Shown here piece after piece: positions 7,932 through 62,189 of a stretch of DNA of 64,000 nucleotides. The position numbers and the translations under genes are program-made. The DNA comes from an uncultured virus (IMG/VR IMGVR_UViG_3300029923_000016) (Duplodnaviria > Heunggongvirae > Uroviricota > Caudoviricetes), in the IMG/VR virus record IMGVR_UViG_3300029923_000016, one strand, 5' to 3'. The notes under the pieces are model-generated. The model was not told where the DNA came from. It did no database searches and worked only from the letters and a program-made list of their open reading frames with translations. How positions within the stretch are numbered: position 1 is the first letter of the stretch; every line of letters starts with the position of its first letter.

Positions 7932-7953
7932 GCTAATTATCCTGTGGTATTAT
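7925..7953 (+). promoter_or_regulatory. Sigma70-like promoter for guide array 1
   Basis: TTGCCA-17 bp-TATTAT with extended TG. Confidence 0.7.
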
Positions 7954-7959
7954 ATTGTT

Positions 7960-8057
7960 TCGATGCGGTGCGATGCTATGCGTTGCGTTGCGCAGCATTG
8001 CGAAGCAAAGGTTACTTTAAAGTATCTAATCAAGCCTCGGTAAAACGAGGCTTTTTT
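7960..8057 (+). ncRNA. Putative non-contiguous guide RNA, array 1: (GCNNW)x9, palindrome, terminator
   Basis: GCGGT GCGAT GCTAT GCGTT GCGTT GCGCA GCATT GCGAA GCAAA at 7965-8009; TACTTTAAAGTA; terminal hairpin. Antisense to the late operon. Confidence 0.8.
8032..8057 (+). terminator. Rho-independent terminator
   Basis: AAGCCTCG-gtaaaa-CGAGGCTT followed by a T-run. Confidence 0.8.
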
Positions 8058-30395: not shown

Positions 30396-30608
30396 CTATC
30401 TCCTAAATGGCAATAGCCCGGGGCCGCCGGGAAAGATGCCGATACAATTGAGTACGGCAATCAGGACTAATAAGCCAAACAAGAGGCGGATGAGCATGAT
30501 AACGGGTGGTGGTAGGGGCAAGAACTGTGCCAGCAAGGTCTCGATAATGTACAGTACAATAAGTGCTACGATAATCCAGATGATGAGGTAGACCAAACAG
30601 CTAAGCAT
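30396..30608 (-). CDS. Small 2-TM membrane protein
   Basis: Two hydrophobic helices joined by PLPPP. Confidence 0.65.
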   Translation of the reverse strand: MLSCLVYLIIWIIVALIVLYIIETLLAQFLPLPPPVIMLIRLLFGLLVLIAVLNCIGIFPGGPGLLPFRR

Positions 30609-47915: not shown

Positions 47916-48172
47916 AAAAAGTTTATGTATCACAAGAGTTTGAACCTTTGACGGGTACCCCTTTCCGTAGGGTACAAGTAAGGTCGCCTACTGTATCAGG
48001 CTCAGTAGAAATATCTGTCGATGAACTGTCGTCGGAAATCACTGACCGTATCGCAATGCTTCGTATAGCGCCCGAGGAGGATGAGGTCATCGGAGTCGGC
48101 AGGAATCTGGGCGGTGACTTGTACTTCCTCTACTTCCCCGATGACTTCGACTTGACGAGGTTGCGGCCATGA
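47912..48172 (+). CDS. Small hypothetical protein, paralogue 2 of 3
   Basis: IAMLRI...EDEVIGVG. Confidence 0.6.
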   Translation: MKKVYVSQEFEPLTGTPFRRVQVRSPTVSGSVEISVDELSSEITDRIAMLRIAPEEDEVIGVGRNLGGDLYFLYFPDDFDLTRLRP

Positions 48173-48429
48173 CACTGCGTATCCACGTCAATTCCAAGGG
48201 AGATATCTACAGCTACACACGGCTTGACCTTATCTCCCTTGCGCTGGATGACCCGCTTACACCGTTGGTGATGGGTAATCTAGCGATGTTAAAATTAGCC
48301 GAGGTCGGTGATACGGTGGCCGATATTGGTGTTAAACTAACGCCATCTGTGTTCATTTGCTGCGAACTCTCACCCGGCCATAATCCTACCATTGAGGATA
48401 TTTTGATTTTTATTAAGGCCCTTTCATGA
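48169..48429 (+). CDS. Small hypothetical protein, paralogue 3 of 3
   Basis: LAMLKL...GDTVADIG. Confidence 0.6.
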   Translation: MTLRIHVNSKGDIYSYTRLDLISLALDDPLTPLVMGNLAMLKLAEVGDTVADIGVKLTPSVFICCELSPGHNPTIEDILIFIKALS

Positions 48430-48623
48430 AACCACTTAATTCTGATTTCACCCGCTGCTACGGTGACGGATGCCCTGAGAAGGCCAGCTGCCTGCGCTTT
48501 ATGACGATGAAAATTGACCCGCCTAACACAGTTTTTTCGTATGCACTGTCCCTCAGGCGGCACCCTAACGAGACCTGCGAGAGTAAATTAGATGGCGACG
48601 TATCGGATATCCACCCCTTGTGA
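48426..48623 (+). CDS. Small Cys-rich protein
   Basis: DFTRC.GDGCP.K.SCLRF. Confidence 0.6.
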   Translation: MKPLNSDFTRCYGDGCPEKASCLRFMTMKIDPPNTVFSYALSLRRHPNETCESKLDGDVSDIHPL

Positions 48624-48822
48624 GTCCCTATTCTGCCACTTCGACGAAGCCCGGGGCATCTGCCTCGGCTGCTTCAGAACCCGCTATGACTTACGGCATT
48701 GGACGGGATATAACGATATTTTAAGGCAGAAAGTAATGATGCGTTCTTTTGAGCGCATGGATGATTTCTTTATTGTAAATGAGCAGTTCTTTAATCGAAA
48801 CCTTGACCATTACGACGGGTGA
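48592..48822 (+). CDS. DUF1289-like Cys-rich protein
   Basis: STPC...C.FD...ICLGCFRT..D...W. Confidence 0.65.
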   Translation: MATYRISTPCESLFCHFDEARGICLGCFRTRYDLRHWTGYNDILRQKVMMRSFERMDDFFIVNEQFFNRNLDHYDG

Positions 48823-48831
48823 GGGTATTAT
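48803..48831 (+). promoter_or_regulatory. Sigma70-like promoter for guide array 2
   Basis: TTGACC-17 bp-TATTAT. Confidence 0.75.
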
Positions 48832-48837
48832 ATGAAC

Positions 48838-48935
48838 CCTAAGCGCTGCCTTGCCCTGCTTAGCCTAGCTTAGCGATGCGCTGCAAAGCAAAGACTAATT
48901 AATTAGTGGTCTACACTCTCTGACGAGAGTGTTTT
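48838..48935 (+). ncRNA. Putative non-contiguous guide RNA, array 2: (GCNNW)x10 plus two hairpins
   Basis: Pentamers at 48843-48892; ACTAATTAATTAGT; ACACTCTC-tgac-GAGAGTGT. Confidence 0.8.
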
Positions 48936-48960
48936 CCAGTAACTAATTATAAGGTGTCTT

Positions 48961-49269
48961 ATGTCCTATTTAACGCCCGAAGGGCGAATCAAAAAGCAAA
49001 TCAAAGCTATACTGGCTGAGTATGGGGTATATTATTTCATGCCAGCGCCCGGGTTTACTTGTAAAGTAGGCGTTCCAGACTATATATGCTGCCTTAATGG
49101 GCATTTCATAGCCATCGAAGCCAAGGCCGGGCGCAAGCTGCCGACGCTGCTGCAACAACGTGAACTTGACTTAATCAACGCCGCAGGCGGCGTGGCTTTG
49201 GTGGTTAACGCCGACAACATACACGCTTTTCCCCTCATACTACAAGAGATAATGAAATGCAACTACTAA
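48961..49269 (+). CDS. VRR-NUC domain nuclease
   Basis: TPEG.IK..I...L, GVPDYI, FIAIEAKAG..PT.LQ. Confidence 0.88.
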   Translation: MSYLTPEGRIKKQIKAILAEYGVYYFMPAPGFTCKVGVPDYICCLNGHFIAIEAKAGRKLPTLLQQRELDLINAAGGVALVVNADNIHAFPLILQEIMKCNY

Positions 49270-52055
49270 CTCTGGACGCAGAAACTTTTTATGCAAAAGA
49301 TTATTCCCTAAGTAAGCTGACGACCGAGCAATATATAACAGATGACCGCTTCGAGGTTATCGGTGTATCCACCAAGATTAACAACGAGCCCGCACAATGG
49401 TTCTCCGGAACATTTGATGAGACGAAAGCATACCTAAACCAATTTGATTGGGATGATATTGCATTAGTAAACCACAATAGTCTATTCGACTCAAGCATCC
49501 TTGGCCTGCGCTTCGGTATCCACCCTAAGAAGCTCATCGACACGCTAAGTATGTCAAGAGCAATCCATGGCATCGAGGTCGGGGGCAGTCTGGCCAAGCT
49601 GGCTGAGCATTACCAGCTGGGTGTCAAGGGCACTGAGGTCATCAATGCCTTGGGTAAACGTAAACAAGACTTTACTACTGAAGAACTAGCGCGCTATGGT
49701 GAGTACTGCAAGAACGACACCGAGCTAACGTACAAATTGTTTTACAAACTACTGCCGCACTTTACTAAATCTGAATTAGACATTATTGATATCACCCTGA
49801 AGATGGCCACACGACCGTTGTTGGAATTGGATAAAGCCGTGCTGACCGCACACCTTGCCGACGTGCAAGCTAAAAAACAAGCGCTCATGGACAAGGTCAT
49901 TGTCTCTCGAAAAGAGCTGATGTCCAACGTCAAATTGGCGCAACTGCTGATAGACTGTGGCGTGGAGCCGCCAATGAAGCTGTCGCCGACTACCGGTAAG
50001 CCGGCCTATGCGTTCGCTAAAACAGACGAGGGCTTCAAAGCATTACTTGACTCTGATAACCTTATGGTACAAACTATTGTTGCTGCTCGGTTGGGTGTTA
50101 AATCAACGCTTGAAGAAACGCGATGTGAAAGGGTTATTGGCATTGCAGAAAGGAACAGGTGTTGTCCTTTCCCGCTGAAGTATTACAGTGCCGCGACAGG
50201 GCGCTGGGCGGGGGCAGATAAAATCAATGTCCAGAATTTCCCGCGTAAGTCGCCGTTAAAGCGAGCGTTCAAGGCCCCCGAGGGTTATGTTATTCTGGGC
50301 GCGGACTTAAAACAAATCGAACTGCGCGTGGGCCTCTGGCTGTCGTCGGAGTGGGAGAAACTGGATATCCTGGCAGGCGGGCTGGACTTGTATAAAGTCT
50401 TCGCCTCAGAGGTACTGGGTGTTGCCTATGATGAGGTCACAGAAGACCAGCGCTTTATTGCCAAGACCTCCTGTATCGCAGAAGGACAGCTTGTCCTTAC
50501 CCCAAGGGGTTTAGTGCCTATAGAAAACATTTTGGTAGACGATAGAGTATGGGATGGGGTAGAATGGGTCTCACATGATGGGGTCATTTACCAAGGGGAG
50601 AGAGATGTCATCACATACCAAGGACTTACAGCCACTACCGACCATATTATATTTACGCAAACTGGTGAGACCCGCCAGTTCGGGGATGCCGCCAATTTAT
50701 CAGCGCGTCTCGCTACTACCGGAGATGATAGGCGCCCGCTTAAATTCATGGGAGATAATCAGTACCGAGATACAACAAACAGTGAAATCGGGGAGCATAA
50801 AGATACATGTGCGCTGCGTTTGTGGCAGAGAGCAGTGGGCGTATGTAGAGGCCATTATCAGAGGGCAGTCCAGACGATGCAAGCCTTGTGCAACACGAAC
50901 TCGGCACCAAAGGCAAGGTCATCTGATTGTCTGGGACAAGGTTACGGAGCTTATACAAAAACGGGCAACAGCTATGCAACAAAGATGCTGCAATCCTATG
51001 GACAAAGGCTACGCCAATTACGGAGGACGAGGGATTCAGTTTTTGTTTGGCTCAACGAAAGAGTGTGTAGAGTATATCAAAACGTTGCCTCTCTGGGATT
51101 CCGGGTTGGAGGTGGACCGAATCGACAACAATGGACACTATGCAGTAGGGAACTTGCGTATGGTGTCCCGCAAGGTACAGACCAGCAATCGTCGAAATAC
51201 GATGTGGATTTCGTGGCGAGAGGAAATGCTTCTGGTAGCGGACTGGGCAGAATCCCCTTACGCACTGAGAGTAACCTGCAAGTATGTTCAGCAGGGTTTA
51301 ACGGGGGAACAAATTATCCAGACCGCATGGGACTCAGTGGCGAAGAAATGCAAGAATTGGCGGGGGATAAAAAGAAAGTTAGAGTCTATGACATATTAAA
51401 CGCCGGCCCTAGGCATCGCTTCACGGTGTCTAACGTGTTAGTCCATAACTGTCTGTCATTGGTTTTTGGGGTGGGCGCGGCGAAGCTGCAAGCGGCTATT
51501 CTCTCGGGTATAGGTTTGGATGTGGGCATCGTCGAAAGTAAACGGATAGTGGAATTTTACCGAGACAACCACCCCGGTGTGAGAGCAGCATGGTCGGCGT
51601 GTGGTAACGCTATTAAGTTATTAACCACAGGCGGTGAGGGGATGATACTAACCGATAATTTAATCAAGGTCGAAGGGCGCAAGGGTATCCGGCTACCGTC
51701 AGGACTGTATTTAAAATACCCTGAGCTACAGTATTCTGAAGATGCGCAGACCCGGAAGCGGGAATATAAATACAAAATTAGAAGCAGTTGGGATAGATTG
51801 TACAGCGGTAAGTGTTTTAACAATATTACTCAGGCAACTGCACGCTGTATCTTTGCTGAGGCGCTACCCAAAATCAATAAGCATTACCCTATTGTATTAT
51901 TGATTCACGACGCCGCCTATGTCCTGGTGCCGGAGGGGGGTGTAGAGGAGGCGAAGCAGATTTTAGAAGAAATCATGTGCCAGCCGCCGGACTGGATGCC
52001 GGATATTCCCTTGGAGGTTGAGTTTCATTATGGCCGAACTCTTTTCGATTGTTAG
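49257..52055 (+). CDS. Family A DNA polymerase with intein
   Basis: LTLDAET exonuclease motif, TGRW, ADLKQIELR (motif A), RFIAKTS/CLSLVFG (motif B, split by intein), IHD (motif C). Confidence 0.92.
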   Translation: MQLLTLDAETFYAKDYSLSKLTTEQYITDDRFEVIGVSTKINNEPAQWFSGTFDETKAYLNQFDWDDIALVNHNSLFDSSILGLRFGIHPKKLIDTLSMSRAIHGIEVGGSLAKLAEHYQLGVKGTEVINALGKRKQDFTTEELARYGEYCKNDTELTYKLFYKLLPHFTKSELDIIDITLKMATRPLLELDKAVLTAHLADVQAKKQALMDKVIVSRKELMSNVKLAQLLIDCGVEPPMKLSPTTGKPAYAFAKTDEGFKALLDSDNLMVQTIVAARLGVKSTLEETRCERVIGIAERNRCCPFPLKYYSAATGRWAGADKINVQNFPRKSPLKRAFKAPEGYVILGADLKQIELRVGLWLSSEWEKLDILAGGLDLYKVFASEVLGVAYDEVTEDQRFIAKTSCIAEGQLVLTPRGLVPIENILVDDRVWDGVEWVSHDGVIYQGERDVITYQGLTATTDHIIFTQTGETRQFGDAANLSARLATTGDDRRPLKFMGDNQYRDTTNSEIGEHKDTCALRLWQRAVGVCRGHYQRAVQTMQALCNTNSAPKARSSDCLGQGYGAYTKTGNSYATKMLQSYGQRLRQLRRTRDSVFVWLNERVCRVYQNVASLGFRVGGGPNRQQWTLCSRELAYGVPQGTDQQSSKYDVDFVARGNASGSGLGRIPLRTESNLQVCSAGFNGGTNYPDRMGLSGEEMQELAGDKKKVRVYDILNAGPRHRFTVSNVLVHNCLSLVFGVGAAKLQAAILSGIGLDVGIVESKRIVEFYRDNHPGVRAAWSACGNAIKLLTTGGEGMILTDNLIKVEGRKGIRLPSGLYLKYPELQYSEDAQTRKREYKYKIRSSWDRLYSGKCFNNITQATARCIFAEALPKINKHYPIVLLIHDAAYVLVPEGGVEEAKQILEEIMCQPPDWMPDIPLEVEFHYGRTLFDC
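50472..51449 (+). mobile_element. Intein in DNA polymerase motif B (326 aa, C1...HN|C+1)
   Basis: CIAEGQLVLT (block A), TATTDH (block B), VYDI...F..SNVLVHN (blocks F/G). Confidence 0.9.
50686..51399 (+). CDS. HNH-type homing endonuclease overprinted in the +1 frame of the polymerase intein (frame open from 50575)
   Basis: RCVCG, C..C, MQQRC.NP...YANYGGRGI, EVDRIDNNGHY.VGNLR.V....Q..NRR. Confidence 0.85.
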   Translation: MPPIYQRVSLLPEMIGARLNSWEIISTEIQQTVKSGSIKIHVRCVCGREQWAYVEAIIRGQSRRCKPCATRTRHQRQGHLIVWDKVTELIQKRATAMQQRCCNPMDKGYANYGGRGIQFLFGSTKECVEYIKTLPLWDSGLEVDRIDNNGHYAVGNLRMVSRKVQTSNRRNTMWISWREEMLLVADWAESPYALRVTCKYVQQGLTGEQIIQTAWDSVAKKCKNWRGIKRKLESMTY

Positions 52056-52174
52056 GCAGTGTCTGTATTGTTGGCTACACGGCTTTGGCATGAAAACTGG
52101 AGCGGAGATTTGGCTTAGACGCCAAGGCATCCGCGAAAATTCTAACTATCATTTAGGCTCACAGAGGCGACCAC

Positions 52175-52381
52175 GTGAATGAAATAGAGATTAGTTTTCA
52201 CAGTATTGAGTTAAGTATTTTTTATAATATCGACCCCAAGATTGGCTTGAATATTTTGTATATCTACCATTTCGATGAGGAAATCTCCTGTTATCTTAAT
52301 TTCTACGCGGTTTCGGAAATCAAACAGGCGATTTGGGAGCATCTCGATTCTCCTGATACTCTTTCAATAGCAAATCAATGA
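52175..52381 (+). CDS. Hypothetical AT-rich protein
   Basis: GAGG RBS, GTG start. Confidence 0.45.
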   Translation: MNEIEISFHSIELSIFYNIDPKIGLNILYIYHFDEEISCYLNFYAVSEIKQAIWEHLDSPDTLSIANQ

Positions 52382-52483
52382 GTTGTGTTAGGGGGAGTCC
52401 CAAATCTAATGATAGCTGCTTAAGGTTTTTGTGTGTCTGAACCTTAACCAGCAGAGAAACATATTTTTTATTCATATATAAGG

Positions 52484-52511
52484 TTGCGTATTAAATTAGG
52501 GGGTGTATAAT
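52484..52511 (+). promoter_or_regulatory. Sigma70-like promoter for the tandem guide locus (arrays 3-5)
   Basis: TTGCGT-16 bp-TATAAT with AT-rich upstream sequence. Confidence 0.6.
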
Positions 52512-52551
52512 ATTATATATGAAATTTATAGAGGGGGTTAATTTATGTGAG

Positions 52552-52691
52552 TCAAAGCTATGCAATGCTTAGCCGTGCACTGCGATGCTGAGCGATGCCG
52601 TGCCTAGCTATGCTCTGCGGAGCAATGCAAAGCCTAATTAATTAGGGTACTGAGTCTTCTCACGAGGGCTTAGTGCGGTAATTAATTTACC
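52552..52691 (+). ncRNA. Putative guide array 3: (GCNNW)x15 plus three hairpins
   Basis: Pentamers at 52557-52631; CCTAATTAATTAGG; 13-bp G-U-rich stem at 52647-52676; GGTAA..TTACC. Confidence 0.85.
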
Positions 52692-52798
52692 AAAGCGCTG
52701 CTGTGCCTTGCTATGCGAAGCCATGCGGAGCAATGCAAAGGCTATTTTAATAATAGCGTACTAGCCATTCCAACGAGTGGTTAGTGCGGTATTGTACC
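52692..52798 (+). ncRNA. Putative guide array 4: (GCNNW)x9 plus three hairpins
   Basis: Pentamers at 52695-52739; GCTATT..AATAGC; 13-bp stem at 52758-52787; GGTA..TACC. Confidence 0.85.
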
Positions 52799-52878
52799 AC
52801 TGCGATGCAGTGCGATGCCTTGCAGTGCCAAGCTTAGCATAGCACAGCGAAGCAAAGGCCGTGCCTTTTAGGCACGGC
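52799..52878 (+). ncRNA. Putative guide array 5: (GCNNW)x11 plus hairpin
   Basis: Pentamers at 52802-52856; GCCGTGCCT-ttt-AGGCACGGC. Confidence 0.82.
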
Positions 52879-52900
52879 ACCCTATTTTTAGGAGAATCAA

Positions 52901-53590
52901 ATGTCAAAAATGTTGCCGTGGAGTTATTCGGGGCTAAGCCAATTTCAAGTATGCCCGTTGCAATTCTACGAGCATCGCGTACGTAAAAGCGTACCGTTCA
53001 TAGAGACCGATGCGATTAAGTACGGCAAAGCCCTGCACAGCGCGGCGGAGTTTTACATCAAGTCCAACATGCCCTTGCCTGCCGAGTTTGCGTTCATGCA
53101 GAGCTACCTGGATAAGCTAATAGCGTTGCCGGGCAAAAAATATGTCGAGCTACAGATGGGCATAGCTATCAAAGATTGGGCGTTTGTCCATTGTGATTAC
53201 TGGGATTCAAGCTGCTGGTATCGGGGCGTCAGTGATTTTATTTCCGTTGACCACGATAATGAGAAAGCTTACCTGGTCGATTTTAAGACCGGTAAGAGTG
53301 CAGCCTATGCCGACACCACCCAGTTGGCATTACTGGCGGCGCTTATTTTTCTGCATTTCCCGAAGGTCAAAACGGTCAAAAGCATGCTGTTGTTCGTCAA
53401 GGCTGGACAAATTGTCAAAGCAGAGTATGATTTTGCCAGTCGGTTTACAGTGTTTGCGCATCTGAATCAGGACTTAAAACGCCTGAAAGCGGCGTACGAA
53501 AGTAACGTGTGGAATCCAACGCAGAACAATTTCTGCAAGCGCTGGTGTGCGGTACATACCTGTGTACATAACGGAGAATATAGTGAGTGA
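52901..53590 (+). CDS. Cas4-like PD-(D/E)XK exonuclease
   Basis: WSYS.L..F..CP, G..LH, RGVSD, VDFKTGK, QL, C.RWC....C. Confidence 0.88.
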   Translation: MSKMLPWSYSGLSQFQVCPLQFYEHRVRKSVPFIETDAIKYGKALHSAAEFYIKSNMPLPAEFAFMQSYLDKLIALPGKKYVELQMGIAIKDWAFVHCDYWDSSCWYRGVSDFISVDHDNEKAYLVDFKTGKSAAYADTTQLALLAALIFLHFPKVKTVKSMLLFVKAGQIVKAEYDFASRFTVFAHLNQDLKRLKAAYESNVWNPTQNNFCKRWCAVHTCVHNGEYSE

Positions 53591-53804
53591 GGAAGAGGTA
53601 GCGTACTTAACGCTGGAGCATCTGAAAGCTATCCGCAAGACCGGCGAGCGTACCGCAGAGGACGTGAAAGATATCATACACCGTGTGTCCTCACTTGAGA
53701 GGTCAACGGCATTACTACACCTTGATTTAGCTCAAATCAACTATCGTCTGGATACTTTCGATGGGCGCTTGGGGCATATCGAGAAACGATTGGAGTTAGA
53801 ATGA
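53583..53804 (+). CDS. Coiled-coil hypothetical protein
   Basis: GGAG RBS, GTG start; RLD..DGRL.HIEKRLEL. Confidence 0.6.
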   Translation: MSEEEVAYLTLEHLKAIRKTGERTAEDVKDIIHRVSSLERSTALLHLDLAQINYRLDTFDGRLGHIEKRLELE

Positions 53805-54046
53805 ATGAACTACCCACAAACGGCCCCGGCAAATACGATGATATTTGTACGGTGGCGCGAGAAAGAACCGATGCGCAAGCCGCCATTGTTATTATAATTA
53901 ATGGCGTGTTGGGCAGTGGTTTCTCACTACAGTCGGAACATCCGGATGTAGTAGTCCAACTACCCGATATGCTTGAAACAATGGCTAAAGAAATACGTGA
54001 AATAATTACTGAGGAGAAGGCAGATGCCGTACAAAGACATGAATGA
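53801..54046 (+). CDS. Hypothetical protein
   Basis: GPGKYDD.CT..RE...A...G..GSGFS. Confidence 0.6.
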   Translation: MNELPTNGPGKYDDICTVARERTDAQAAIVIIINGVLGSGFSLQSEHPDVVVQLPDMLETMAKEIREIITEEKADAVQRHE

Positions 54047-54287
54047 CCGCGACCCGTCACACGAGGCCCAGGTCGAAAAGAAAAACCCCAAAGCCGTGGC
54101 CGCACGCAAGAAACGGCAGCAGGCTAGACAATTGTACGATAAACTCGATATCCCTAGAAAAGGTAAGGATATTGACCATATTAAGGGCACCGAAGCCGGC
54201 AACGCCAAGAGCAATCTCAGGCTACAGACGCCGTCACAGAACCGGTCATTCCCACGTAATTCAAATCACACTGCAAAGAGGAAGTAA
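54024..54287 (+). CDS. Small HNH endonuclease
   Basis: GKDIDH...GN.KSNLR......NRS. Confidence 0.8.
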   Translation: MPYKDMNDRDPSHEAQVEKKNPKAVAARKKRQQARQLYDKLDIPRKGKDIDHIKGTEAGNAKSNLRLQTPSQNRSFPRNSNHTAKRK

Positions 54288-54288
54288 C

Positions 54289-54501
54289 ATGCAAATATCA
54301 ACCAAGTCAGTGATATCACTGGCAGAGGAAGCGGGGCTCCCGCCCTCTTTAATCGAGCGCCACACCGATGCTTTAACGCATTTTGCACTCCGCCTGCGCA
54401 TGGCAGAACGGCGCGTTTGTCGTAATAAGCTGCGCAACTGGACCATAGACAAGTCCCTGAGCAAGCCGCCGCTACTTGAGGCGCTGACGGAGCATGATTG
54501 A
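54289..54501 (+). CDS. Hypothetical protein
   Basis: GAGGA RBS, MQISTKSV. Confidence 0.55.
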   Translation: MQISTKSVISLAEEAGLPPSLIERHTDALTHFALRLRMAERRVCRNKLRNWTIDKSLSKPPLLEALTEHD

Positions 54502-57139
54502 GATAATACATGATAAGGTGTTATCCGTCACCACGGATAGCCCTGACGACATTACAACAGTAATAGACAAGTACAAGATAGACAATGGCAAAGTGCTCAT
54601 CCCCTTTAATCTGGGGAATGTTCACATATTAAAAAACATGGGCTTTACGGTACCGTCGCCCATTGAGACTCGGTATGGGTGGCCTGGACTCCATAAACCC
54701 TTTTCGCATCAGCGCAGTATCGCTTCGTTTTTGACCTTGAATAGGCGGGCGTATAACTTTGGCGAATTAGGAATTGGCAAAACGAAAAGCGCTATCTGGG
54801 CTGCCGACTACCTACTAAGTATAGGTGCTATACGGCGTGTATTGGTTATCGCGCCGCTTAGCATCCTCGATTCTGCATGGAAGCAGGAGATATTCAGGAC
54901 AGTGATGCATCGGTCTGTTGATGTGGCGCATGGCACAAAGGAGAAACGCGAGGCAATAATCAATAGTAAAGCTGAGTTTATACTTATCAATTATGATGGC
55001 GTCGAGATTGTGATTGACGCTTTGGACCGAGGTAACTTTGATTTAATCATAATTGATGAGTGCTTTGTAGCTGGGACACGAGTTCTTACGCCTATTGGTT
55101 TTAGAGCTATTGAACAAATCGTAGAAGGTGATATAATAGAGACAAGTTGGGGGCCAAGACCCGTAACCAAAACGTTTCATAAACAATCATCCAACATAGT
55201 TGAAGTCGAGTTTGAAGATGGTATCAAAATTACCTGCACAGAAGAGCACCCTTTCTCAACCCGAAATGGTTGGGTCGCCGCAAAAGACCTCCTTGGTGAA
55301 ATATGTACTACATCAAGAGAATTGTCACACCTGCGGGACGCCGTTCGAGCAGAAGGTGTTTGCCAACCAGAAGGCATCTCACTATTGTTCTCGCGCATGT
55401 TGGAAAGAGTCGTACTATGTAGATTTGGTGTGCGGGCATTGCGGAAAAAAGTATCGAAAGGTAAAGAGTTACTTAAGAACCAACCCTGCAAAATATTGCA
55501 GCACAAAATGTACGGCGCAAGCGCGCTCTGCAAAAGTTATGGGGGAGACAGTTATGTGTCCGGTCTGCGGAGGGGAGCATTTTGTACCCCACAGAGTGTT
55601 GCGGTATCGTCCAGCATTAACCTGTTCCCGTTCCTGCGCCAGAAAGTTAGTGTGGCAAACAGAGCGAAAGCGGATGATGGATGGCGTACAGAAAGCAGCG
55701 GAGAAGCATCGGGGCCAACCCTCACCTCTCAGGGGGATTCCCCATACAGAAGAGCGCAAGCAACAACAGCGTGCGCTGGCAGTAGAGTTGGGGAGTCGGG
55801 AACCGTTCATGCGAGTGCGGGGCGGCAATGGTACGGGTATGTCAAGAGTAGAGTTACTAATGCGCTCAATACTCCCAGAAAGTTTCCAATACAACTATAT
55901 TGTAAAGACATTACAAAAGCGTGGAAGCGGGTATCCCTATCACTACAAGCTGGATTTCGCAGACCCTTTACAGATGATTTGTTTAGAAGTAGACGGGTAC
56001 AGCCACAATACAATACAGCGTCAAGAACAAGACAGGAAGAAAGAGGCGTTGCTTCAGGACTTAGGGTGGTCAGTGTTACGCGTATCCAACAAGGATGTCC
56101 TCGCGATGTTTGGAATCTGGAAGTAGCGGGCCCTCATGATTATATCGTTGAGGATGTGCTAGTCCATAACTGCAACTACATAAAGAACGTCCAAACCCGC
56201 AAGCACAAGTTCATTAACAAGTTGATTAAAGCGGATACCTGGTGCTGGCTAATGACCGCTACACCGGCTGCGCAGAGCCCTTGTGATGCCTATGGTCTGG
56301 CGCGTATGATAGACCCTAAATCAGTGCCTCGGTCTTATGGTGCATTTAGGGAGATGGTGCAGTATAAAATCAATATGTTTATGTGGATAAATAAACCCGA
56401 TGCAGAGCGAACAGTACACAGAGTTTTACAACCCGCAATTAGATTTACTAAATCAGAATGTTTGGATTTACCTGAGCTATTATATGAGACGCGTGAAGTA
56501 CCTCTGACCGCACAGCAAAACAAGTATTACAAACTTCTAAAAAAGGAAATGATGATTCTCGCTGCGGGTACAACGGTCACTGCGGCGAACGCAGCGGTTC
56601 TGATTGGAAAGTTGTTGCAAATTTCAGCGGGCAACTGTTATGATGAACGTGGGGATATTATTGAGTTTGATATCTCCAACCGATTCAGAGAGCTGTGTGA
56701 TATCATCCGTGAGACGCGTAACAAAACGATAGTGTTTGTGCAGTTTAGGAACTCCATCGAGCGAATCATGCGGATGCTGCAGGATGAAGGCATTACTTGC
56801 GAGGCCATTCACGGGAAAATCCCCATGAATAAGCGGGATGTCATCTTCTCTGATTTCCAAAACAAACCCGACCCGCAAGTGTTAATCATCCAGCCGCAAG
56901 CTGCGGCACACGGTGTGACATTGACAAAAGCGGATACGACAATATGGTTCGGGGTACCCATGTCCTTTGAAATTTACCAACAAGGGAATGGGCGTACGCA
57001 CCGCGCCGGACAACGCAACCAATGTACTGTTGTCCATTTGATAGGTAGTGATGTTGAGAAGAAAGTATTGAACGCGTTGGACAAAAAGAATATGTCCGCA
57101 ACGACTCTATTGGCATTATTTAAAGAGGTAATAAAATGA
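54494..57139 (+). CDS. SNF2-like DNA helicase with intein
   Basis: GIGKT, IIIDE|C (Walker B split by intein), TATP, AHGVTLT, QGNGRTHR.GQ. Confidence 0.92.
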   Translation: MIEIIHDKVLSVTTDSPDDITTVIDKYKIDNGKVLIPFNLGNVHILKNMGFTVPSPIETRYGWPGLHKPFSHQRSIASFLTLNRRAYNFGELGIGKTKSAIWAADYLLSIGAIRRVLVIAPLSILDSAWKQEIFRTVMHRSVDVAHGTKEKREAIINSKAEFILINYDGVEIVIDALDRGNFDLIIIDECFVAGTRVLTPIGFRAIEQIVEGDIIETSWGPRPVTKTFHKQSSNIVEVEFEDGIKITCTEEHPFSTRNGWVAAKDLLGEICTTSRELSHLRDAVRAEGVCQPEGISLLFSRMLERVVLCRFGVRALRKKVSKGKELLKNQPCKILQHKMYGASALCKSYGGDSYVSGLRRGAFCTPQSVAVSSSINLFPFLRQKVSVANRAKADDGWRTESSGEASGPTLTSQGDSPYRRAQATTACAGSRVGESGTVHASAGRQWYGYVKSRVTNALNTPRKFPIQLYCKDITKAWKRVSLSLQAGFRRPFTDDLFRSRRVQPQYNTASRTRQEERGVASGLRVVSVTRIQQGCPRDVWNLEVAGPHDYIVEDVLVHNCNYIKNVQTRKHKFINKLIKADTWCWLMTATPAAQSPCDAYGLARMIDPKSVPRSYGAFREMVQYKINMFMWINKPDAERTVHRVLQPAIRFTKSECLDLPELLYETREVPLTAQQNKYYKLLKKEMMILAAGTTVTAANAAVLIGKLLQISAGNCYDERGDIIEFDISNRFRELCDIIRETRNKTIVFVQFRNSIERIMRMLQDEGITCEAIHGKIPMNKRDVIFSDFQNKPDPQVLIIQPQAAAHGVTLTKADTTIWFGVPMSFEIYQQGNGRTHRAGQRNQCTVVHLIGSDVEKKVLNALDKKNMSATTLLALFKEVIK
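55061..56170 (+). mobile_element. Intein in helicase Walker B (370 aa, C1...HN|C+1)
   Basis: CFVAGTRVLT (block A), ITCTEEHPF (block B), VWNLEV...Y...VLVHN (blocks F/G). Confidence 0.9.
55266..56126 (+). CDS. Zinc-finger plus Vsr/DUF559-like endonuclease overprinted in the +1 frame of the helicase intein (frame open from 55200)
   Basis: Three C..CG...CS..C repeats; YKLDFA...LEVDGYSH.....DRKKE..L..LGWSVLR. Confidence 0.85.
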   Translation: MVGSPQKTSLVKYVLHQENCHTCGTPFEQKVFANQKASHYCSRACWKESYYVDLVCGHCGKKYRKVKSYLRTNPAKYCSTKCTAQARSAKVMGETVMCPVCGGEHFVPHRVLRYRPALTCSRSCARKLVWQTERKRMMDGVQKAAEKHRGQPSPLRGIPHTEERKQQQRALAVELGSREPFMRVRGGNGTGMSRVELLMRSILPESFQYNYIVKTLQKRGSGYPYHYKLDFADPLQMICLEVDGYSHNTIQRQEQDRKKEALLQDLGWSVLRVSNKDVLAMFGIWK

Positions 57140-57315
57140 CAGCAAGCGAAATAGAAGATTTTAATGATTTATTATCTGATGCTGAGATGAACGCCAGCAC
57201 GGATTGGGAACTCGAATTCACCGGTAGTATGAGGGCGCATTATAAAAAATATGGCGATGACACCTATGTGTCCGCCAAGCAATTACATCACCTGGAGAAG
57301 ATTGCAAATGTGTGA
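57136..57315 (+). CDS. Small hypothetical protein (59 aa)
   Basis: GAGG RBS, ATGA overlap; TDWELEF..S......YG....VS.KQ...LEKI. Confidence 0.6.
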   Translation: MTASEIEDFNDLLSDAEMNASTDWELEFTGSMRAHYKKYGDDTYVSAKQLHHLEKIANV

Positions 57316-57486
57316 GACGTTACATTTGATATCCATTGTACTGCTTATTGGCGCTATCGGTATGATGTGGGTGCTACACAGTGTAGGCAAGGCGCTGAAT
57401 AAACAAGATGAGCGGGATAAGAGTTGACAAACTAGCTTTACAACTGTATAATAATCTCACAGTCAACAACTAAACAGGACAAGACT

Positions 57487-57879
57487 ATGCCCGATGTAGA
57501 AAAGATAGTATCCGTCTATCTGAAAATCAGAAACAAGAAAGCGGAAATCACCAAGGCTTATGAAGCGCAGATAGCAGAGCTTGACGCTAAACAAGATATG
57601 CTCCAAAGCGCATTGCTTGATTTGTGTAAAGAACTGGGCGTTGAATCAGTTCGTACAGAATCCGGCACTGCCTTTAGGACTATCAAAGAACGAGTCTTCG
57701 TATCGGATTGGGCAGCTGTAGAGCAATTCATCTACGACAATGACGCGTTTGATTTGGTCGAGAAAAGGCTTGCCCAGAACGCGGCTAAGTCATGGATAAA
57801 AGACTTCCCAGACAAACCTATCCCGTCTGTGGTTGTAGACAGAAAGTTTACTATAACGGTTAGGAGAGGTAAGCCATGA
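57487..57879 (+). CDS. Replication-module hypothetical protein
   Basis: TTGACA-17 bp-TATAAT at 57424; YLKIR...SVRT.SGT...DW. Confidence 0.7.
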   Translation: MPDVEKIVSVYLKIRNKKAEITKAYEAQIAELDAKQDMLQSALLDLCKELGVESVRTESGTAFRTIKERVFVSDWAAVEQFIYDNDAFDLVEKRLAQNAAKSWIKDFPDKPIPSVVVDRKFTITVRRGKP

Positions 57880-58262
57880 GCGATTATTCTAATAATGAAC
57901 TGTTACATCCGGACCTTCCTGAACCGGACATTTTCTTAACCGAAAAAGAAGTCAGGGAAATTTTAGGGTTATCCCGGCAGTCTTGTTATAATATGCGCCG
58001 AGCCGGCATCTTCACCAGCCACTATATCAAAGGCAAAGTGAAATACTCGGCCAAAGAAGTCGAAGCGTACATTGAGCGCAAATCATTGCCTGATATCCGT
58101 GTGACGCCAACAATCAGAACGCGTGCCAAACCCGGCGAACCGAAGAAGGAAAGAGTTTATACCAAGCCTGCCCCGTCTGTTGCCAAGATGAGCAAGCGCA
58201 CCCCACCCCCTGCTACGATGCCAGAACCATCGTATGAGGACTTTGATAATTACTTTATATAA
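57876..58262 (+). CDS. Excisionase/AlpA-like HTH protein
   Basis: FLTEKEVREILGLSRQSCY...G....Y...EVEAYI. Confidence 0.7.
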   Translation: MSDYSNNELLHPDLPEPDIFLTEKEVREILGLSRQSCYNMRRAGIFTSHYIKGKVKYSAKEVEAYIERKSLPDIRVTPTIRTRAKPGEPKKERVYTKPAPSVAKMSKRTPPPATMPEPSYEDFDNYFI

Positions 58263-58271
58263 GAGAGCACC

Positions 58272-59249
58272 ATGAGCAACTTAAGCATATTTAAAAACGG
58301 CGGCGGCGTCCCTGCCCATCTTCAAAAAAGAGAGCTGTCTGCCGCCACCAAAGCCTTGATGGGTGGTTTTGAAAACCGCCGTATCTCTATCCGGGGCGGG
58401 GTCTTCCGCAAGGTCATCAATGGTCAGGAGGTGGGTTCCATCCCCGAACGGGCACTGAACGTGGTCATTGTTGGCGTCGCCGAGCATACTTCCCGGCAGT
58501 ATTACAAAGCCGCCTATCAGGAGAATGCCGACCCGGTGGCACCGGACTGCTACAGTGCTGACGGCATCACGCCGATGGCAACAGCGACGGCGATTCAAGC
58601 AGCCACCTGCGCCGCCTGTCCACAGAATATCGCAGGCTCAGGCCAAGGTGATTCCAAAGCCTGCCGCTTCCAACGCCGCATTGCGGTGGTCTTGGAGAAA
58701 AACCTGGAAGATGGTGAGGTTTATGAAATGACGCTGGCAGCGACCAGTCTGTTTGGTGGCAAGGGCAAGCCTGACCCCGACAAGATGGGCATGCGCCAGT
58801 ACGCCAACTTTTTGGGTGGTTACGGCGTCAACATCGACGCCGTGGTCACTGAATTGCGCTTTGATTTGGACGCCGCCACCCCGAAATTACTGTTCGCGGC
58901 ATTAAGACCGTTAGAGACGGATGAGCTGTTGCTGGTTGAGGAATATTCCAAATTGCCGGAGACTATCCAGGCTATCACATACAGCTTTGGTGGGGTGGTG
59001 GTGAAACCGGCGGCTGCCGAATTGCCCTTTATCCAGCCTCGCCCAGCTCCTGCCCCCGCAGCTGCGTCAGTGCCTGAGCCAGAGCCCGTCGTTCCGGCAC
59101 GCACAAGGGTCACTCGAAATCGCCCCGCCGCAGCCGCTGCGCCTGCCCCTGAAGTCATTCCGGAGCCGATACGCCGTGAAAGCCACGCCGCGCCGCAACC
59201 CGCCTCGACAAATATTGATGAGCTGCTATCGGAGTGGGGCGACGAGTGA
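58272..59249 (+). CDS. Putative ssDNA-binding/annealing (SSB-like) protein
   Basis: RISIRGG.FR, PDCYS.DG, C..CPQN..GS...KACR, Pro/Ala linker, acidic tail DELLSEWGDE. Confidence 0.65.
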   Translation: MSNLSIFKNGGGVPAHLQKRELSAATKALMGGFENRRISIRGGVFRKVINGQEVGSIPERALNVVIVGVAEHTSRQYYKAAYQENADPVAPDCYSADGITPMATATAIQAATCAACPQNIAGSGQGDSKACRFQRRIAVVLEKNLEDGEVYEMTLAATSLFGGKGKPDPDKMGMRQYANFLGGYGVNIDAVVTELRFDLDAATPKLLFAALRPLETDELLLVEEYSKLPETIQAITYSFGGVVVKPAAAELPFIQPRPAPAPAAASVPEPEPVVPARTRVTRNRPAAAAAPAPEVIPEPIRRESHAAPQPASTNIDELLSEWGDE

Positions 59250-59255
59250 TATAAT
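59247..59255 (+). promoter_or_regulatory. Extended -10 promoter for guide array 6
   Basis: TG-A-TATAAT overlapping the upstream stop codon. Confidence 0.65.
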
Positions 59256-59261
59256 TTTTCT

Positions 59262-59370
59262 TCCATAGCGATGCGATGCCTAGCCTAGCTTAGCGTTGCG
59301 ATGCGATGCTATGCAGTGCAAAGGCCACTTTAAAGTGGCAAGAACGAGCGGCTTAGGCCGCTCCTTTTTC
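59262..59370 (+). ncRNA. Putative guide array 6: (GCNNW)x11, palindrome, terminator
   Basis: Pentamers at 59268-59322; GCCACTTTAAAGTGGC; GAGCGGC-ttag-GCCGCTC plus T-run. Confidence 0.87.
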
Positions 59371-59390
59371 CTCTTCGGGACACATCAAAA

Positions 59391-62189
59391 ATGGACCCAC
59401 ATGATTTCCTCAGCTCCATCCTACCCAACACCGGCCCGTACTGTTTCACCCTCATTAAGAACGGCCTCGTTAATCAACAATTCATTGATGCTATCCCCAC
59501 TGATGCCGAGCTCGTAGAGTTCGCCAACGACTACGCCGACCACGATATTTATTTCGCCGTCGCCAGCTTCCAAACCAAAACCAGCCGCACCCAAGCCAAT
59601 GTCGCCCAACTTAAATCCTTATGGATTGATTTGGACGTCGGCGGCAAATCAGCCTATGCTACCAAGAAGGATGCCAAACAAGCGCTTGATAAATTCGTCG
59701 CTGCTGCCGGGCTTCCTGCACCTACGCTGGTAGACTCCGGTGGTGGTGCACATATCTATTGGCCACTAACACAGGCTATTGATATCCCTGAGTGGAAGGC
59801 GTTGGTTCTGGCATTACTAAGCAAAGCGACGGAGCACGGGTTTAGCATTAAAGACATCGGTGTTTCCAAAGACAGCGCCCGCATTCTACGGGTTCCCGGA
59901 ACAACTAACCATAAGTTCGACCCACTGCGACTCGTCGCCGTTATCAAGACTGGCACACCAACCGACCCGACTGTACTGGGGAGTTTGCTTAGCGTCGGCG
60001 CACCCATCCCGAATAATCCCAAAGTTAGAACGAATCTAACTTCACAGGCGGTAAGTAAACTCTCTCCGTTAACCCGCGCCTTGATGTCTCACCAAGGCCA
60101 GCAATACGGGCAGGTGATTACCCGGTCGATGCAGGGAACAGGTTGTGTGCAGTTGGCTAATGCTTATATCAATCAGGATGATTTAACGGGTATGCATTGG
60201 TGGAGCGTGATGTCTATCCCGCAGTTCACCGAGCAACGCCAGGAAGCGGTGCATAACCTCTCCTATCAGCACAGCAACTATTCAATCGAAGCCACCTTGC
60301 TTAAGGCCGAGCGCACCGACGGGCCGTATGCCTGCGCCAAGATAAGCGAGCATCGTCCGGAGCTCTGCACCGCCTGCCCTCATTACGGGAATATCACTTA
60401 CCCTTTTTTGCTCGATAGGACCCCCCGCCCGGAGCAGGTCCACCCACTCAATGAAGACATTGCCCGCAGCGGCTTACCCCCCATAGTTTATCCGTATTTA
60501 CCCGGCGCGCGGGCGGGTATTTATGTTAAACAATTTATCCCTAACAAAGACGGCGACGGTGGCTCCATGGCCATCAAACACGTCTACAATCATACCTTTT
60601 ACGTGTCAGGGCGCTGCCTTGACCCGCACGAGGGAGAGCTGGTCCACATGAAACTGATACGCCCCCACGACGGTGTTAAGGACTTTTCCGCGCCGTTATC
60701 CGAGATTACCGCCAAGGAGAAATGCAGGGAGCACTTCTCCAAACAAGGCATGGCCGCAGATGCGTTTAAAATGAAGATGCTGATGGAATACACCACCGAG
60801 TTTTGCAGTTACTTACAAGAGATCGACAAAGCCGACAATATCCGTGTCCAGTTCGGTTGGCATGACAATGACACCTGCTTCATTGTCGGCAACCGGGAGA
60901 TTCGCAAAGACGGCATCTATTACTCAATGCCCTCCAACGATACCCTGCAAGCCTCTGTCCAGTTTACCAAAGTCGGTACCTTGGCGGCATGGCAATCGGT
61001 CGCTCAGCGCTACGCAGGGCCTGATAATGAGGTACGGGCATTTGCCTTAATGATAGGCTTGGGCTGCCCGATGTTCAAATACTTGGGTCACGGCGGCGCT
61101 ATCCTGCACTTGACCAACACACTATCGGGTGTCGGTAAGTCTGCCGCCCAAGGCTTGGCATTGAGCGCCTGGGGTCACCCCGACAAGGGCATGAGTCTGA
61201 TGAAAGACACCCTGAACATGCGTCTGCATCGCCTGGGTGTGATGAACAATGTGGTGTTCTGCATGGATGAAATCACCCAGATGACCGCCGAAGAAGTCGG
61301 TACCCTGGCGTACTCGATTAGCCAAGGCCGAGGCAAAGGCCGCATGGAGGCGTCGGCCAACCGTGAGCGGGCCAATAACACCACCTGGAGCGTGCCGTGC
61401 ATTACCTCGGGCAACGCCAATATCCATGACGTCTTAAAAGCCAACAGCATGAACTCCGATGGCGAGGTCATGCGGGTGCTGGAGATGCGCGTCGAGCCCA
61501 TCACCGGCATCACCAAGGAAGAGTCTGACCGACTGTTTATTGATGTCCTGCAGAACAACTACGGGCATGCGGGGGAAATCATTGTCCAGTATATCCTCAA
61601 CCATCGGGAGGAGTGCTTCACGCGTCTGAAGGCCATCCAGAAAGAGTTTGATTTGGCCATGGGCTACCTTAACCCCGAGCGCTATTATTCATTGCTCACA
61701 ACCACAGCCTTATGGGGTGGGGAGATTGGCAACATGCTCGGCCTGATTGATATCCCGCTGGCGCCTATTGTAGATTACTTGATGAAACAAAACACAGACA
61801 CCCGTAGCGAGGTGCGTACGCCTGAGCAAATATCGGGTAATACCATCGGGACATTTATCAACGAGCACGCCGGCAATCATACCTTGGTGATTGACATGCG
61901 CCCGTCGAATATCCCCGGTGACCTACGCCCGGCGGTACAAATGCCGCGTGGCGAGCTGATGATACGCATTGAAACCGATACCAAAATGATTTATATCACC
62001 ACTACCAGCCTGCGCAGTTGGTGCAGCAAGAAGCGGGTGTCGTTCAATGACACCGTCGAGGAGCTCAAGACCAAAGGTGCTTTGATAACCACCGGTCAAG
62101 TGAAGATGGCCGAAGGCACGCAGACATCATCGCCCGCAGTACGGGCGCTTATTTTAGACAAGACAATTTTAGATGAGATGGGGTTATAA
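59391..62189 (+). CDS. Primase-helicase (RepB-like primase plus DUF927-type ATPase)
   Basis: WIDLD, SGGGAHIYW, RILRVPGT.N.K, SGVGKS, MDE, NNYGHAG. Confidence 0.88.
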   Translation: MDPHDFLSSILPNTGPYCFTLIKNGLVNQQFIDAIPTDAELVEFANDYADHDIYFAVASFQTKTSRTQANVAQLKSLWIDLDVGGKSAYATKKDAKQALDKFVAAAGLPAPTLVDSGGGAHIYWPLTQAIDIPEWKALVLALLSKATEHGFSIKDIGVSKDSARILRVPGTTNHKFDPLRLVAVIKTGTPTDPTVLGSLLSVGAPIPNNPKVRTNLTSQAVSKLSPLTRALMSHQGQQYGQVITRSMQGTGCVQLANAYINQDDLTGMHWWSVMSIPQFTEQRQEAVHNLSYQHSNYSIEATLLKAERTDGPYACAKISEHRPELCTACPHYGNITYPFLLDRTPRPEQVHPLNEDIARSGLPPIVYPYLPGARAGIYVKQFIPNKDGDGGSMAIKHVYNHTFYVSGRCLDPHEGELVHMKLIRPHDGVKDFSAPLSEITAKEKCREHFSKQGMAADAFKMKMLMEYTTEFCSYLQEIDKADNIRVQFGWHDNDTCFIVGNREIRKDGIYYSMPSNDTLQASVQFTKVGTLAAWQSVAQRYAGPDNEVRAFALMIGLGCPMFKYLGHGGAILHLTNTLSGVGKSAAQGLALSAWGHPDKGMSLMKDTLNMRLHRLGVMNNVVFCMDEITQMTAEEVGTLAYSISQGRGKGRMEASANRERANNTTWSVPCITSGNANIHDVLKANSMNSDGEVMRVLEMRVEPITGITKEESDRLFIDVLQNNYGHAGEIIVQYILNHREECFTRLKAIQKEFDLAMGYLNPERYYSLLTTTALWGGEIGNMLGLIDIPLAPIVDYLMKQNTDTRSEVRTPEQISGNTIGTFINEHAGNHTLVIDMRPSNIPGDLRPAVQMPRGELMIRIETDTKMIYITTTSLRSWCSKKRVSFNDTVEELKTKGALITTGQVKMAEGTQTSSPAVRALILDKTILDEMGL

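Follow-up and report, generated by a model that had tools for sequence, protein, structure and literature searches.

Apparently solo VIPR guide arrays in a peat phage, and Leu, Ser and Arg codon-family swaps in the neighbouring replication genes that they resemble

VIPR combines a Vipr protein of the RAMP type (about 20 kDa) with a guide, the vrRNA (bioRxiv 10.64898/2026.04.26.720920; structures in 10.64898/2026.04.26.720927). According to the accessible part of the first of these preprints, a vrRNA holds 9–16 YNNGG repeats, of which the two variable nucleotides (NN) pair with DNA, with a one-nucleotide skip in which the skipped base is usually the wobble base; the repeat forms NNNGG, YNNNG and NNNNG are also on record there, and the action is described as transcriptional silencing, not cutting. 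In the available text of a further preprint (bioRxiv 10.64898/2026.10.15.759431), VIPR-null phages and satellites with solo vrRNAs borrow a rival's Vipr, and escape requires amino-acid-changing mutations. Both papers, as far as their accessible text goes, hold that the skip rule blocks silent escape (10.64898/2026.04.26.720920, 10.64898/2026.10.15.759431). Here we describe a stretch of 64,000 nucleotides from an uncultured virus of the Caudoviricetes (IMG/VR IMGVR_UViG_3300029923_000016; hereafter the window), which carries six arrays of pentanucleotide repeats that look like solo vrRNAs. Two of them resemble, in frame, replication genes that lie a few hundred nucleotides away, and at seven of the eight Leu, Ser and Arg positions shared by guide and gene the resident codon belongs to the other codon family.

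The account that we consider probable, if by no means assured, is that these arrays encode solo VIPR guides directed against the versions of neighbouring essential genes that rivals carry, and that the phage's own alleles stay below the matching threshold in part through amino-acid differences and in large measure through silent recoding between the six-fold codon families.

Six arrays and their kinship with VIPR guides

The six tracts lie on the + strand (Table 1), and each consists of 9–16 head-to-tail NNWGC units with an invariant GC and either A or T as third base. Rephased as C-NN-W-G, the unit is the YNNNG form, and the arrays fit the vrRNA definition of tandem pentanucleotides in which a conserved triplet alternates with a hypervariable NN. 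Arrays 1, 2 and 6 have a −10-like hexamer (TATTAT or TATAAT) 8–9 nucleotides upstream, with a TG in front of it in arrays 1 and 6. All six tracts close with AAAG and then a hairpin, which provides the structured 3′ tail of vrRNAs, and the folds tested have z scores of −5.3 to −5.8. Arrays 3, 4 and 5 are separated by a long conserved hairpin with compensating changes that folds as a plain long hairpin. No Rfam family matched at its gathering threshold in the window, and none, the hammerhead included, matched at E ≤ 10 within 52400–52950.

Several smaller observations concern the same tracts. Just 5′ of the first unit of array 3, at 52531–52553, a Shine–Dalgarno-like AGAGGGGG is followed by an ATG directly joined to TGA, a start-stop pair. 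A tail-less run of five NNNGC units in the PD-(D/E)XK nuclease gene (53022–53046) is probably a chance occurrence. In four peat or wetland metatranscriptome runs, short contigs are identical to 51700–51842, 52039–52372 and 52827–52977; none spans the repeat tracts, but contigs cannot show small RNAs. One metatranscriptome contig runs from the end of array 5 through its terminator hairpin into the 5′ end of the nuclease gene.

A pattern scan found the same tract type in 104 viral loci, 41 of which encode, adjoining the tracts, a protein of about 196 residues with a C-terminal loop rich in glycine. Built from 21 members of this family, profile A1 matches PDB entry 36pp_D, 'SUSP1 Vipr protein', with an E value of 2.6e-44. 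In addition, a Vipr-encoding locus, L003, has tails and inter-array elements to which those of the window can be aligned. This kinship bears on the reading that the arrays are not guides at all, and that they form periodic sites at which an oligomeric protein of the TRAP type binds RNA or DNA, and in which the NN would be meaningless. The strict 5-nucleotide period and the fixed WGC triplet do resemble TRAP-type sites, and four of the six arrays are without a recognisable partner in the shuffle test given below. However, the same arrays adjoin SUSP1 Vipr homologues in the 41 loci, and the NN of arrays 3 and 6, like those of a guide in an unrelated phage (L063, below), spell gene segments in frame. 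We rejected TRAP-like binding repeats because of these Vipr-homologue neighbours and the in-frame information of the NN, and regard them as highly improbable.

Two other loci illustrate the range of the tract type. A 195-kb viral contig (L004) holds at least 20 arrays in 11 kb, each with a different conserved tail (ACACTTACTACCAAGACCAACAGAAC...), beside a 224-residue Vipr homologue and a truncated second copy. A distant relative of the window phage with the same order of replication genes (L054) has two NNNGC arrays at 6005–6105 on the − strand, in which the third base is not always A or T; they sit between small open reading frames and the helicase gene, and a Vipr gene was not found in this 19-kb record.

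The search for a Vipr gene in the phage itself covered the window and a 4.8-kb flank on its left, occupied by virion protein genes, with about 3 kb of the genome of roughly 72 kb lying outside. Profile A1 reached at best an E value of 0.43 against the window by hmmsearch and a probability of 3% by hhalign (open reading frames of at least 100 residues), and the best tblastn E value was 0.03; five other records of the same phage yielded nothing with the Vipr profile, the positive control being recovered in 2/2. Open reading frames of 325, 130 and 152 residues were considered as Vipr and set aside, as they have no similarity to it, and a 188-residue open reading frame with matches in two array-bearing loci turned out to be an HNH endonuclease. 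Solo vrRNAs are recognized by functional-looking tails in a genome without vipr, and here the tails look functional and no vipr was found in the portion of the genome covered. Judged by sequence, the six arrays look like solo (orphan) vrRNAs in a phage without a detected vipr.

Near-self matches and codon-family swaps

When its NN are read as the first two positions of codons, array 3 spells KYNLRTD(W)DRLYSGNK, and residues 838–853 of the resident DNA polymerase of family A (PolA) are KYKIRSSWDRLYSGKC. Array 6 read in the same way spells IDDLLLVDDYS, and the protein of the resident 325-residue open reading frame, which its composition suggests to be SSB-like, has TDELLLVEEYS. The BLOSUM scores of the two alignments, 60 and 38, were each reached by 0 of 300 unit-order shuffles (mean 28.3, standard deviation 3.4, for array 3; mean 25.3, standard deviation 2.4, for array 6). 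Arrays 1, 2, 4 and 5 have no above-chance amino-acid match in the window (300 shuffles each). For array 4 the best window match is at chance level, with 284 of 300 shuffles as good or better, and there is no window site within 3 mismatches and nothing outstanding within about 6 kb; array 1 likewise has no window site within 3 mismatches, nor does array 2 have a self site at that level (9-unit pattern, first unit TA omitted). Self-targeting at 80% NN or more is absent from the window, the resident maxima being 8/16, 7/11 and 6/11 for arrays 3, 6 and 5.

Two further readings of these alignments were considered. The idea that W might encode the class of the wobble base was abandoned, since by purine or pyrimidine W agrees in just 9 of the 15 NN-matching units (hand count over the alignments of arrays 3 and 6); in other loci the third base is A almost without exception, and decoding then produces many stop codons. 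In a 294-residue open reading frame without a family match (43584–44468), WDRLY (TGG GAC CGT CTG TAT, 44193–44207) equals five consecutive units of array 3, yet the overall agreement is 5/16 and we take it as chance.

Imperfect matches of this kind might themselves be functional, the vrRNAs tuning the phage's own adjoining replication genes. Such autoregulation would suit guides that lie 0.1–0.8 kb from the genes they resemble and match them in frame and far above chance. In the accessible part of the published work, however, disturbed NN pairing abolished silencing, and natural targets were called at 80% NN or more, with no self matches at that level (bioRxiv 10.64898/2026.04.26.720920). The resident matches reach 50–67% NN, the L063 guide has 12 rival alleles at 13/15, and the window yielded no Vipr gene, all of which makes autoregulation improbable in our view.

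For Leu, Ser and Arg, silent changes at codon positions 1 and 2 are possible. The alignments of arrays 3 and 6 share eight such residues with the resident genes, and seven of the eight resident codons are in the other family. All four are swapped for array 3 (guide/resident CG/AGA, CG/AGA, CT/TTG and TC/AGC), as are three of four for array 6 (CT/TTG, TT/CTG and AG/TCC), where the remaining pair, CT/CTG, keeps the family. With the codon usage of the window (Leu CTN 0.59, Ser TCN 0.61, Arg CGN 0.75), 3.3 swaps of 8 are expected, and the probability of seven or more is 0.0087 under genome-wide usage and 0.019 under gene-specific usage; adding the array 5 site in the primase gene brings the whole window to 7/9. 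The first-pass annotation had counted 9 swaps at 11 positions over arrays 3, 4 and 6. The excess stands for arrays 3 and 6, whereas neither the count of 9/11 nor any alignment of array 4, which is without an above-chance partner, could be reproduced. The wobble-skipping guides of the first-pass annotation are real and, in the available text, already published for VIPR (bioRxiv 10.64898/2026.04.26.720920).

Alleles from relatives allow the swaps to be placed. In the SSB-like gene, the window and relative L198 differ in family at 3/3 conserved Leu and Ser positions in the vrRNA 6 footprint versus 11/48 elsewhere (Fisher P 0.0175). The alleles of L198 and a second relative, L197, agree at 234 of 235 residues over the first 235 codons; between them, swaps occur at 2/3 positions in the footprint versus 4/53 outside, and three of the eight differences at codon positions 1 and 2 fall in the 11 footprint codons of 235. 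For PolA, the comparison comprised 24 distinct array-free orthologue sequences of about 50% identity, in which Arg-5 is CGN in 23/24 and Leu-11 is CTN in 22/24; both are the families of the guide, and the resident has AGA and TTG.

An independent case emerged when 285 distinct guides of array-bearing loci were compared, by amino-acid class, with their own loci. The strongest near-self matches were those of L063, of window arrays 3 and 6, and of L040 and L028. L063 is a Vipr-encoding contig of an unrelated phage, whose guide (NN: TC AC TC CC GG GA GG GG AA CA AC CG CC AC AC) is aligned with the C-terminal end of the portal gene next to it (AGC ACC AGT CCT GGT GAT GGC GGG AAC GGG ACG AGG CCG ACG CCG). 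Guide and portal agree in 10/15 units; of the five that mismatch, two fall on Ser codons and one on an Arg codon, all of the other family (AGC, AGT and AGG). In 12 other viral contigs, with portal orthologues 65–85% identical and no array within 1.5 kb, the guide matches 13/15 units with the skip at the wobble base, which is above the 80% NN of a target; these rival portals encode the same peptide as L063, with TCN, TCN and CGG, the families of the guide. A family-agnostic pattern gave one match in prokaryote genomes, TCC/TCG/CGG in an array-free sequence. Related portals of GenBank phages are all less than 60% identical; the 30 listed are at about 39%, with matches that stop before the footprint, so that GenBank phages supply no unbiased sample of these codons. 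From these sequences, the L063 portal appears to be the clearest case of swapping, with an identical peptide and 3/3 recodable codons switched.

Over the six near-self pairs pooled, 12/17 shared Leu, Ser and Arg positions are swapped, and silent family swaps account for 12/30 mismatched units (hand sums). We note that in L040 (2772 on the − strand, and 2855) a canonical NNGGY vrRNA directly 3′ of the vipr gene matches the glycine-loop region (AKGGPYGRFEVS) of this same gene in 8/12 units, with an Arg in the other family. The exact patterns of the L040 guide and of a guide of a further locus, L014, have 0 matches in 368 loci. A guide of L003 was also compared with 'RDARKEL' sites; it reached 7/10 at best, a borderline value, and was not used.

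Targets, neutral divergence and linkage

The partners that can be recognized for the window guides are DNA polymerase, the SSB-like gene and primase, and not vipr genes, other vrRNAs, satellites or host decoys. Among 120 aligned homologues, the amino-acid class pattern of vrRNA 6 fits the resident allele best (10/11), followed by three close relatives at 9/11, with the other 115 at 8 or fewer; the resident allele being the best class fit, the guide would therefore aim at an allele very close to the phage itself. In the array-free relatives L197 and L198 (the latter on the same contig as L113), whose protein is 87% identical over the whole gene, vrRNA 6 matches 8/11, and vrRNA 5 matches the primase of the L113/L198 contig, also at 8/11. 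None of 155 more distant loci has an array within 1.5 kb.

A mechanism can be proposed on this basis. Each vrRNA would be transcribed from its own −10 element, or, for arrays 3, 4 and 5, as a cluster transcript, and would end in its structured tail. A Vipr protein provided in trans, from either a co-infecting or a resident element, would load the guide, the NN dinucleotides would pair with codon positions 1 and 2 of the target gene, and the wobble base would be skipped. The targets would be the DNA polymerase, SSB-like and primase alleles of close relatives, all of them essential replication genes, and rivals carrying them would be silenced. The phage's own copies, 0.3–0.8 kb from the guide genes, would encode an almost identical peptide, yet between a third and a half of the guide units would not match them; where such a mismatch is silent, it would mostly be a Leu, Ser or Arg family switch, the sole kind of silent change that a wobble-skipping guide could perceive; these switches would have been selected for self-immunity.

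A number of observations weigh against this proposal. No Vipr has been found in the phage, so that guide activity is predicted only, and a very divergent type of Vipr, or a Vipr gene in the remaining 3 kb or so, may exist. For none of the six window guides was a target at 80% NN or more found. The in-frame self matches of vrRNAs 3 and 6 that follow the skip rule have 50% and 64% NN and the best non-self match 8/11, against a published target cut-off of at least 80%; the exact 14-unit pattern of vrRNA 3 and 10-unit pattern of vrRNA 6 have 0 matches each in viral contigs. The swaps in the window are a small sample of 8 positions, and the one Leu that vrRNA 5 shares with the resident primase keeps its family. 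In PolA, Arg-10 is AGA or AGG in 24/24 array-free orthologues, as in the resident, and is not a resident-specific escape. Relative to L197, the window is swapped at 1/3 positions in the vrRNA 6 footprint versus 13/48 outside. Third positions in that footprint differ at 5/11 versus 55/235 gene-wide, a somewhat raised divergence behind which local recombination may stand. Outside the window, near-self pairs total 5/9 swapped: those other than L063 are mixed, with one swapped and none the same in L040, one swapped and three the same in L014 (Leu the same), and none swapped and one the same in L028 (Ser the same). Moreover, the 12 targets of the L063 guide were found with a pattern that requires the guide's families, and the share of array-free alleles with AGY or AGR is not measurable from them.

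Several of these points, namely the small sample, PolA Arg-10, the L197 comparison, the pairs outside the window and the third-position divergence, favour neutral divergence, under which the guides target diverged relatives and the family differences result from drift or recombination, with no selection for self-immunity. Background swap rates are considerable as well, at 23–27% for 87% protein identity and about 30–50% for about 50% identity. However, 7/8 swaps contrast with 3.3 expected even under fully independent codon choice (P 0.009–0.019), and the best fit of the vrRNA 6 class pattern to the resident among 120 homologues implies a close target, for which about 25% swaps are expected. 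The L063 portal has 3/3 swaps in an identical peptide, and all 13 sampled rival alleles keep the guide's families; swaps also concentrate in the footprint between the nearly identical L197 and L198 alleles. Neutral divergence is in our opinion a serious but unlikely explanation.

The first-pass annotation had proposed self-immunity through Leu, Ser and Arg swaps and named shared codons in array-free orthologues as grounds for refutation. Self-immunity draws support from the 7/8 count (P about 0.01–0.02), the 3/3 swaps relative to L198 and the 3/3 swaps of L063, and is weakened by the small numbers, by PolA Arg-10 and by the three weaker pairs, with two positions swapped versus four the same. 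The footprint differs from the rest of the gene in the comparison with L198 and not in that with L197. Array-free orthologues have the resident family at one of the four polymerase positions, Arg-10, and mostly the guide's families at Arg-5 and Leu-11.

Guides and resembled genes are closely linked. The distance from array to near-self site is 739 nucleotides for array 3 and 316 nucleotides for array 6, and the five strongest near-self matches of the 285 guides lie 83–786 nucleotides from their arrays. Such linkage of a guide with a resistant allele fits a poison-antidote unit. Neither a Vipr gene nor a dedicated nuclease is tied to the window arrays; a PD-(D/E)XK nuclease gene follows arrays 3–5, but is also an ordinary phage recombination gene, syntenic in L054. 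Homing by DNA cleavage is unsupported. Of the earlier suggestion that guide and resistant allele could spread together like a homing element, we retain the tight linkage and not the homing itself, VIPR being reported to silence.

A stronger version of our proposal, possible though in our estimate doubtful, is that a vrRNA gene and a silently recoded neighbouring essential allele make up a linked poison-antidote cassette. In a mixed infection the guide, loaded on the Vipr of a rival or resident element, would shut the unrecoded rival allele, genomes or recombinants with guide plus recoded allele would take over, and the cassette would spread in a drive-like manner without a nuclease; six-fold recoding would then be a general, selected route to self-immunity and escape. 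If true, this would be at odds with the published position, in which synonymous changes offer no escape from a wobble-skipping guide.

Genome context and comparison with known systems

Sixteen DNA runs labelled as peat metagenomes contain the whole window, which makes up most of one phage genome; a megablast search of positions 48000–60000 against GenBank phages gave no match. The structural module is on the − strand and the early and replication module on the + strand (Table 1). The intein of PolA comprises residues 406–731 (CIAEG...VHN, followed by C), and the polymerase of L054 (651 residues) is intein-free. The 325-residue protein has 372 homologues at E ≤ 1e-5. The replication module also holds the PD-(D/E)XK nuclease and an SNF2 helicase with an intein (about 55061–56170; Hint/intein matches at residues 190–559). 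The genome is rich in selfish elements, with many free-standing endonuclease genes. It also has two paralogous Ant-like genes, the one just left of the window (L275 4591–4955) being 91% identical over 365 bp to an anti-repressor-like gene at window positions 4280–4644.

Table 1. Positions of the arrays, the near-self sites and other features in the window.
Feature	Position	Strand	Description
vrRNA 1 −10-like element	7948-7953	+	TATTAT
vrRNA 1 repeat tract	7962..8006	+	9 units, NN = GA GG GA TA GT GT GC AT GA
vrRNA 1 tail	to about 8057	+	AAAGG, hairpin and T-run terminator
vrRNA 2 −10-like element	48826-48831	+	TATTAT
vrRNA 2 repeat tract	48840..48889	+	10 units
vrRNA 2 structured tail	48890-48950	+	fold z −5.4
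Element upstream of array 3	52504-52511	+	TGTATAAT, about 40 nucleotides 5′ of tract
vrRNA 3 repeat tract	52554..52633	+	16 units; first of three-vrRNA cluster (arrays 3, 4, 5)
vrRNA 3 tail and inter-vrRNA hairpin element	52634..52691	+	GGGTACTGAG...CTTAGTGCGGTA; fold −26.9 kcal/mol, z −5.8
vrRNA 4 repeat tract	52692..52736	+	9 units
vrRNA 4 tail and second copy of inter-vrRNA hairpin element	52737..52798	+	compensating stem changes, z −5.3
vrRNA 5 repeat tract	52799..52853	+	11 units
vrRNA 5 tail and terminator hairpin	52854-52895	+	terminator 52858-52878
Element upstream of vrRNA 6	59247-59255	+	TGATATAAT, just past stop of SSB-like gene
vrRNA 6 repeat tract	59265..59319	+	11 units
vrRNA 6 tail hairpin and terminator	to about 59368	+	
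vrRNA 3 near-self site in PolA	51768..51815	+	downstream of intein; in frame, NN 8/16, amino-acid class 12/16, 4 swaps
vrRNA 6 near-self site in SSB-like gene	58917..58949	+	in frame, NN 7/11, class 10/11, 3 swaps
Resident primase site TDAELVEFAND	59499..59531	+	homologous to vrRNA 5 match in L113; NN 6/11, one shared Leu, same family
DNA polymerase family A gene (PolA)	49257..52055	+	intein at about 50472-51449
Conserved phage protein, 325 residues	58272..59249	+	Pro/Ala-rich linker, acidic C-terminal tip
Primase/helicase (DUF927) gene	59391..62189	+	
Endonuclease VII-like genes, two	1354-2139 and 30601-31281		
HNH/homing-type endonuclease, 509 residues	21071-22600		
HNH-AP2 endonuclease, 188 residues	44575-45141		
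Endonuclease-like open reading frame, 102 residues	48961-49269		directly 3′ of array 2, directly 5′ of polymerase

The arrays share with VIPR the 9–16 pentanucleotide units of fixed triplet and variable NN, the structured invariant 3′ tail, matches to coding sequence with the skip at the wobble base (in the window, the near-self sites of arrays 3 and 6 at 50% and 64% NN), the grouping of several vrRNAs with structured separators, and the absence of a self match at 80% NN. They differ in the repeat, C-NN-W-G as opposed to the mainly Y-NN-GG repeats of the available published text (where YNNNG forms are mentioned), in the distribution of the vrRNA genes over four genome sites, where VIPR as described in that text keeps one locus, and in that neither vipr nor vap was found in the 64 kb and the 4.8-kb flank. 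Unlike the separators of hammerhead-interspersed vrRNA arrays, the inter-vrRNA element of the window matches no hammerhead model. With the solo vrRNAs, as described in the accessible text, the window has in common a phage without vipr, tails like those of Vipr-encoding relatives, self scores below rival scores, and a reading as warfare between phages. The published solo vrRNAs, in that text, belong to phages of Enterobacteriaceae, stand in place of a deleted vipr-vap1 and are directed at vipr, other vrRNAs, satellites or host repeats (bioRxiv 10.64898/2026.10.15.759431), whereas the guides of the peat phage resemble adjoining essential replication genes. The text of that preprint, its supplementary tables aside, makes no mention of leucine, arginine, six-fold codon families or homing, and in the main text of bioRxiv 10.64898/2026.04.26.720920, again apart from supplementary tables, 'synonymous' is confined to the argument about silent escape.

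VIPR was first described only in 2026. The present data point to a loophole in the skip rule, namely silent recoding of Leu, Ser and Arg codons at positions 1 and 2, and phages whose guides target homologues of genes that they themselves carry seem to exploit it. If general, it would explain how guides can be aimed at essential genes common to carrier and rivals, would predict the sites of escape mutations, and would join a guide gene and its resistant allele as one linked selfish unit. Programmable VIPR tools would gain design rules as well: Leu-, Ser- and Arg-rich footprints would be avoided, or exploited for allele discrimination.

Free-standing homing endonucleases, marker exclusion and poison-antidote drives all involve a selfish agent that adjoins the gene whose rival allele is attacked. 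The window resembles them in that the carrier allele is protected by sequence differences and that agent and resistant allele are inherited together, and differs in that there is no evidence of DNA cleavage in the window and that protection is partly by silent recoding, not by insertion or target disruption. CRISPR, including the CRISPR arrays encoded by phages, likewise directs an RNA-guided attack on competitors and must avoid the carrier's own genome. The window guides differ from it in being without a repeat-spacer array, a protospacer-adjacent motif or adaptation genes, and in that the carrier's copy is homologous to the target and told apart from it only by a few mismatched dinucleotides.

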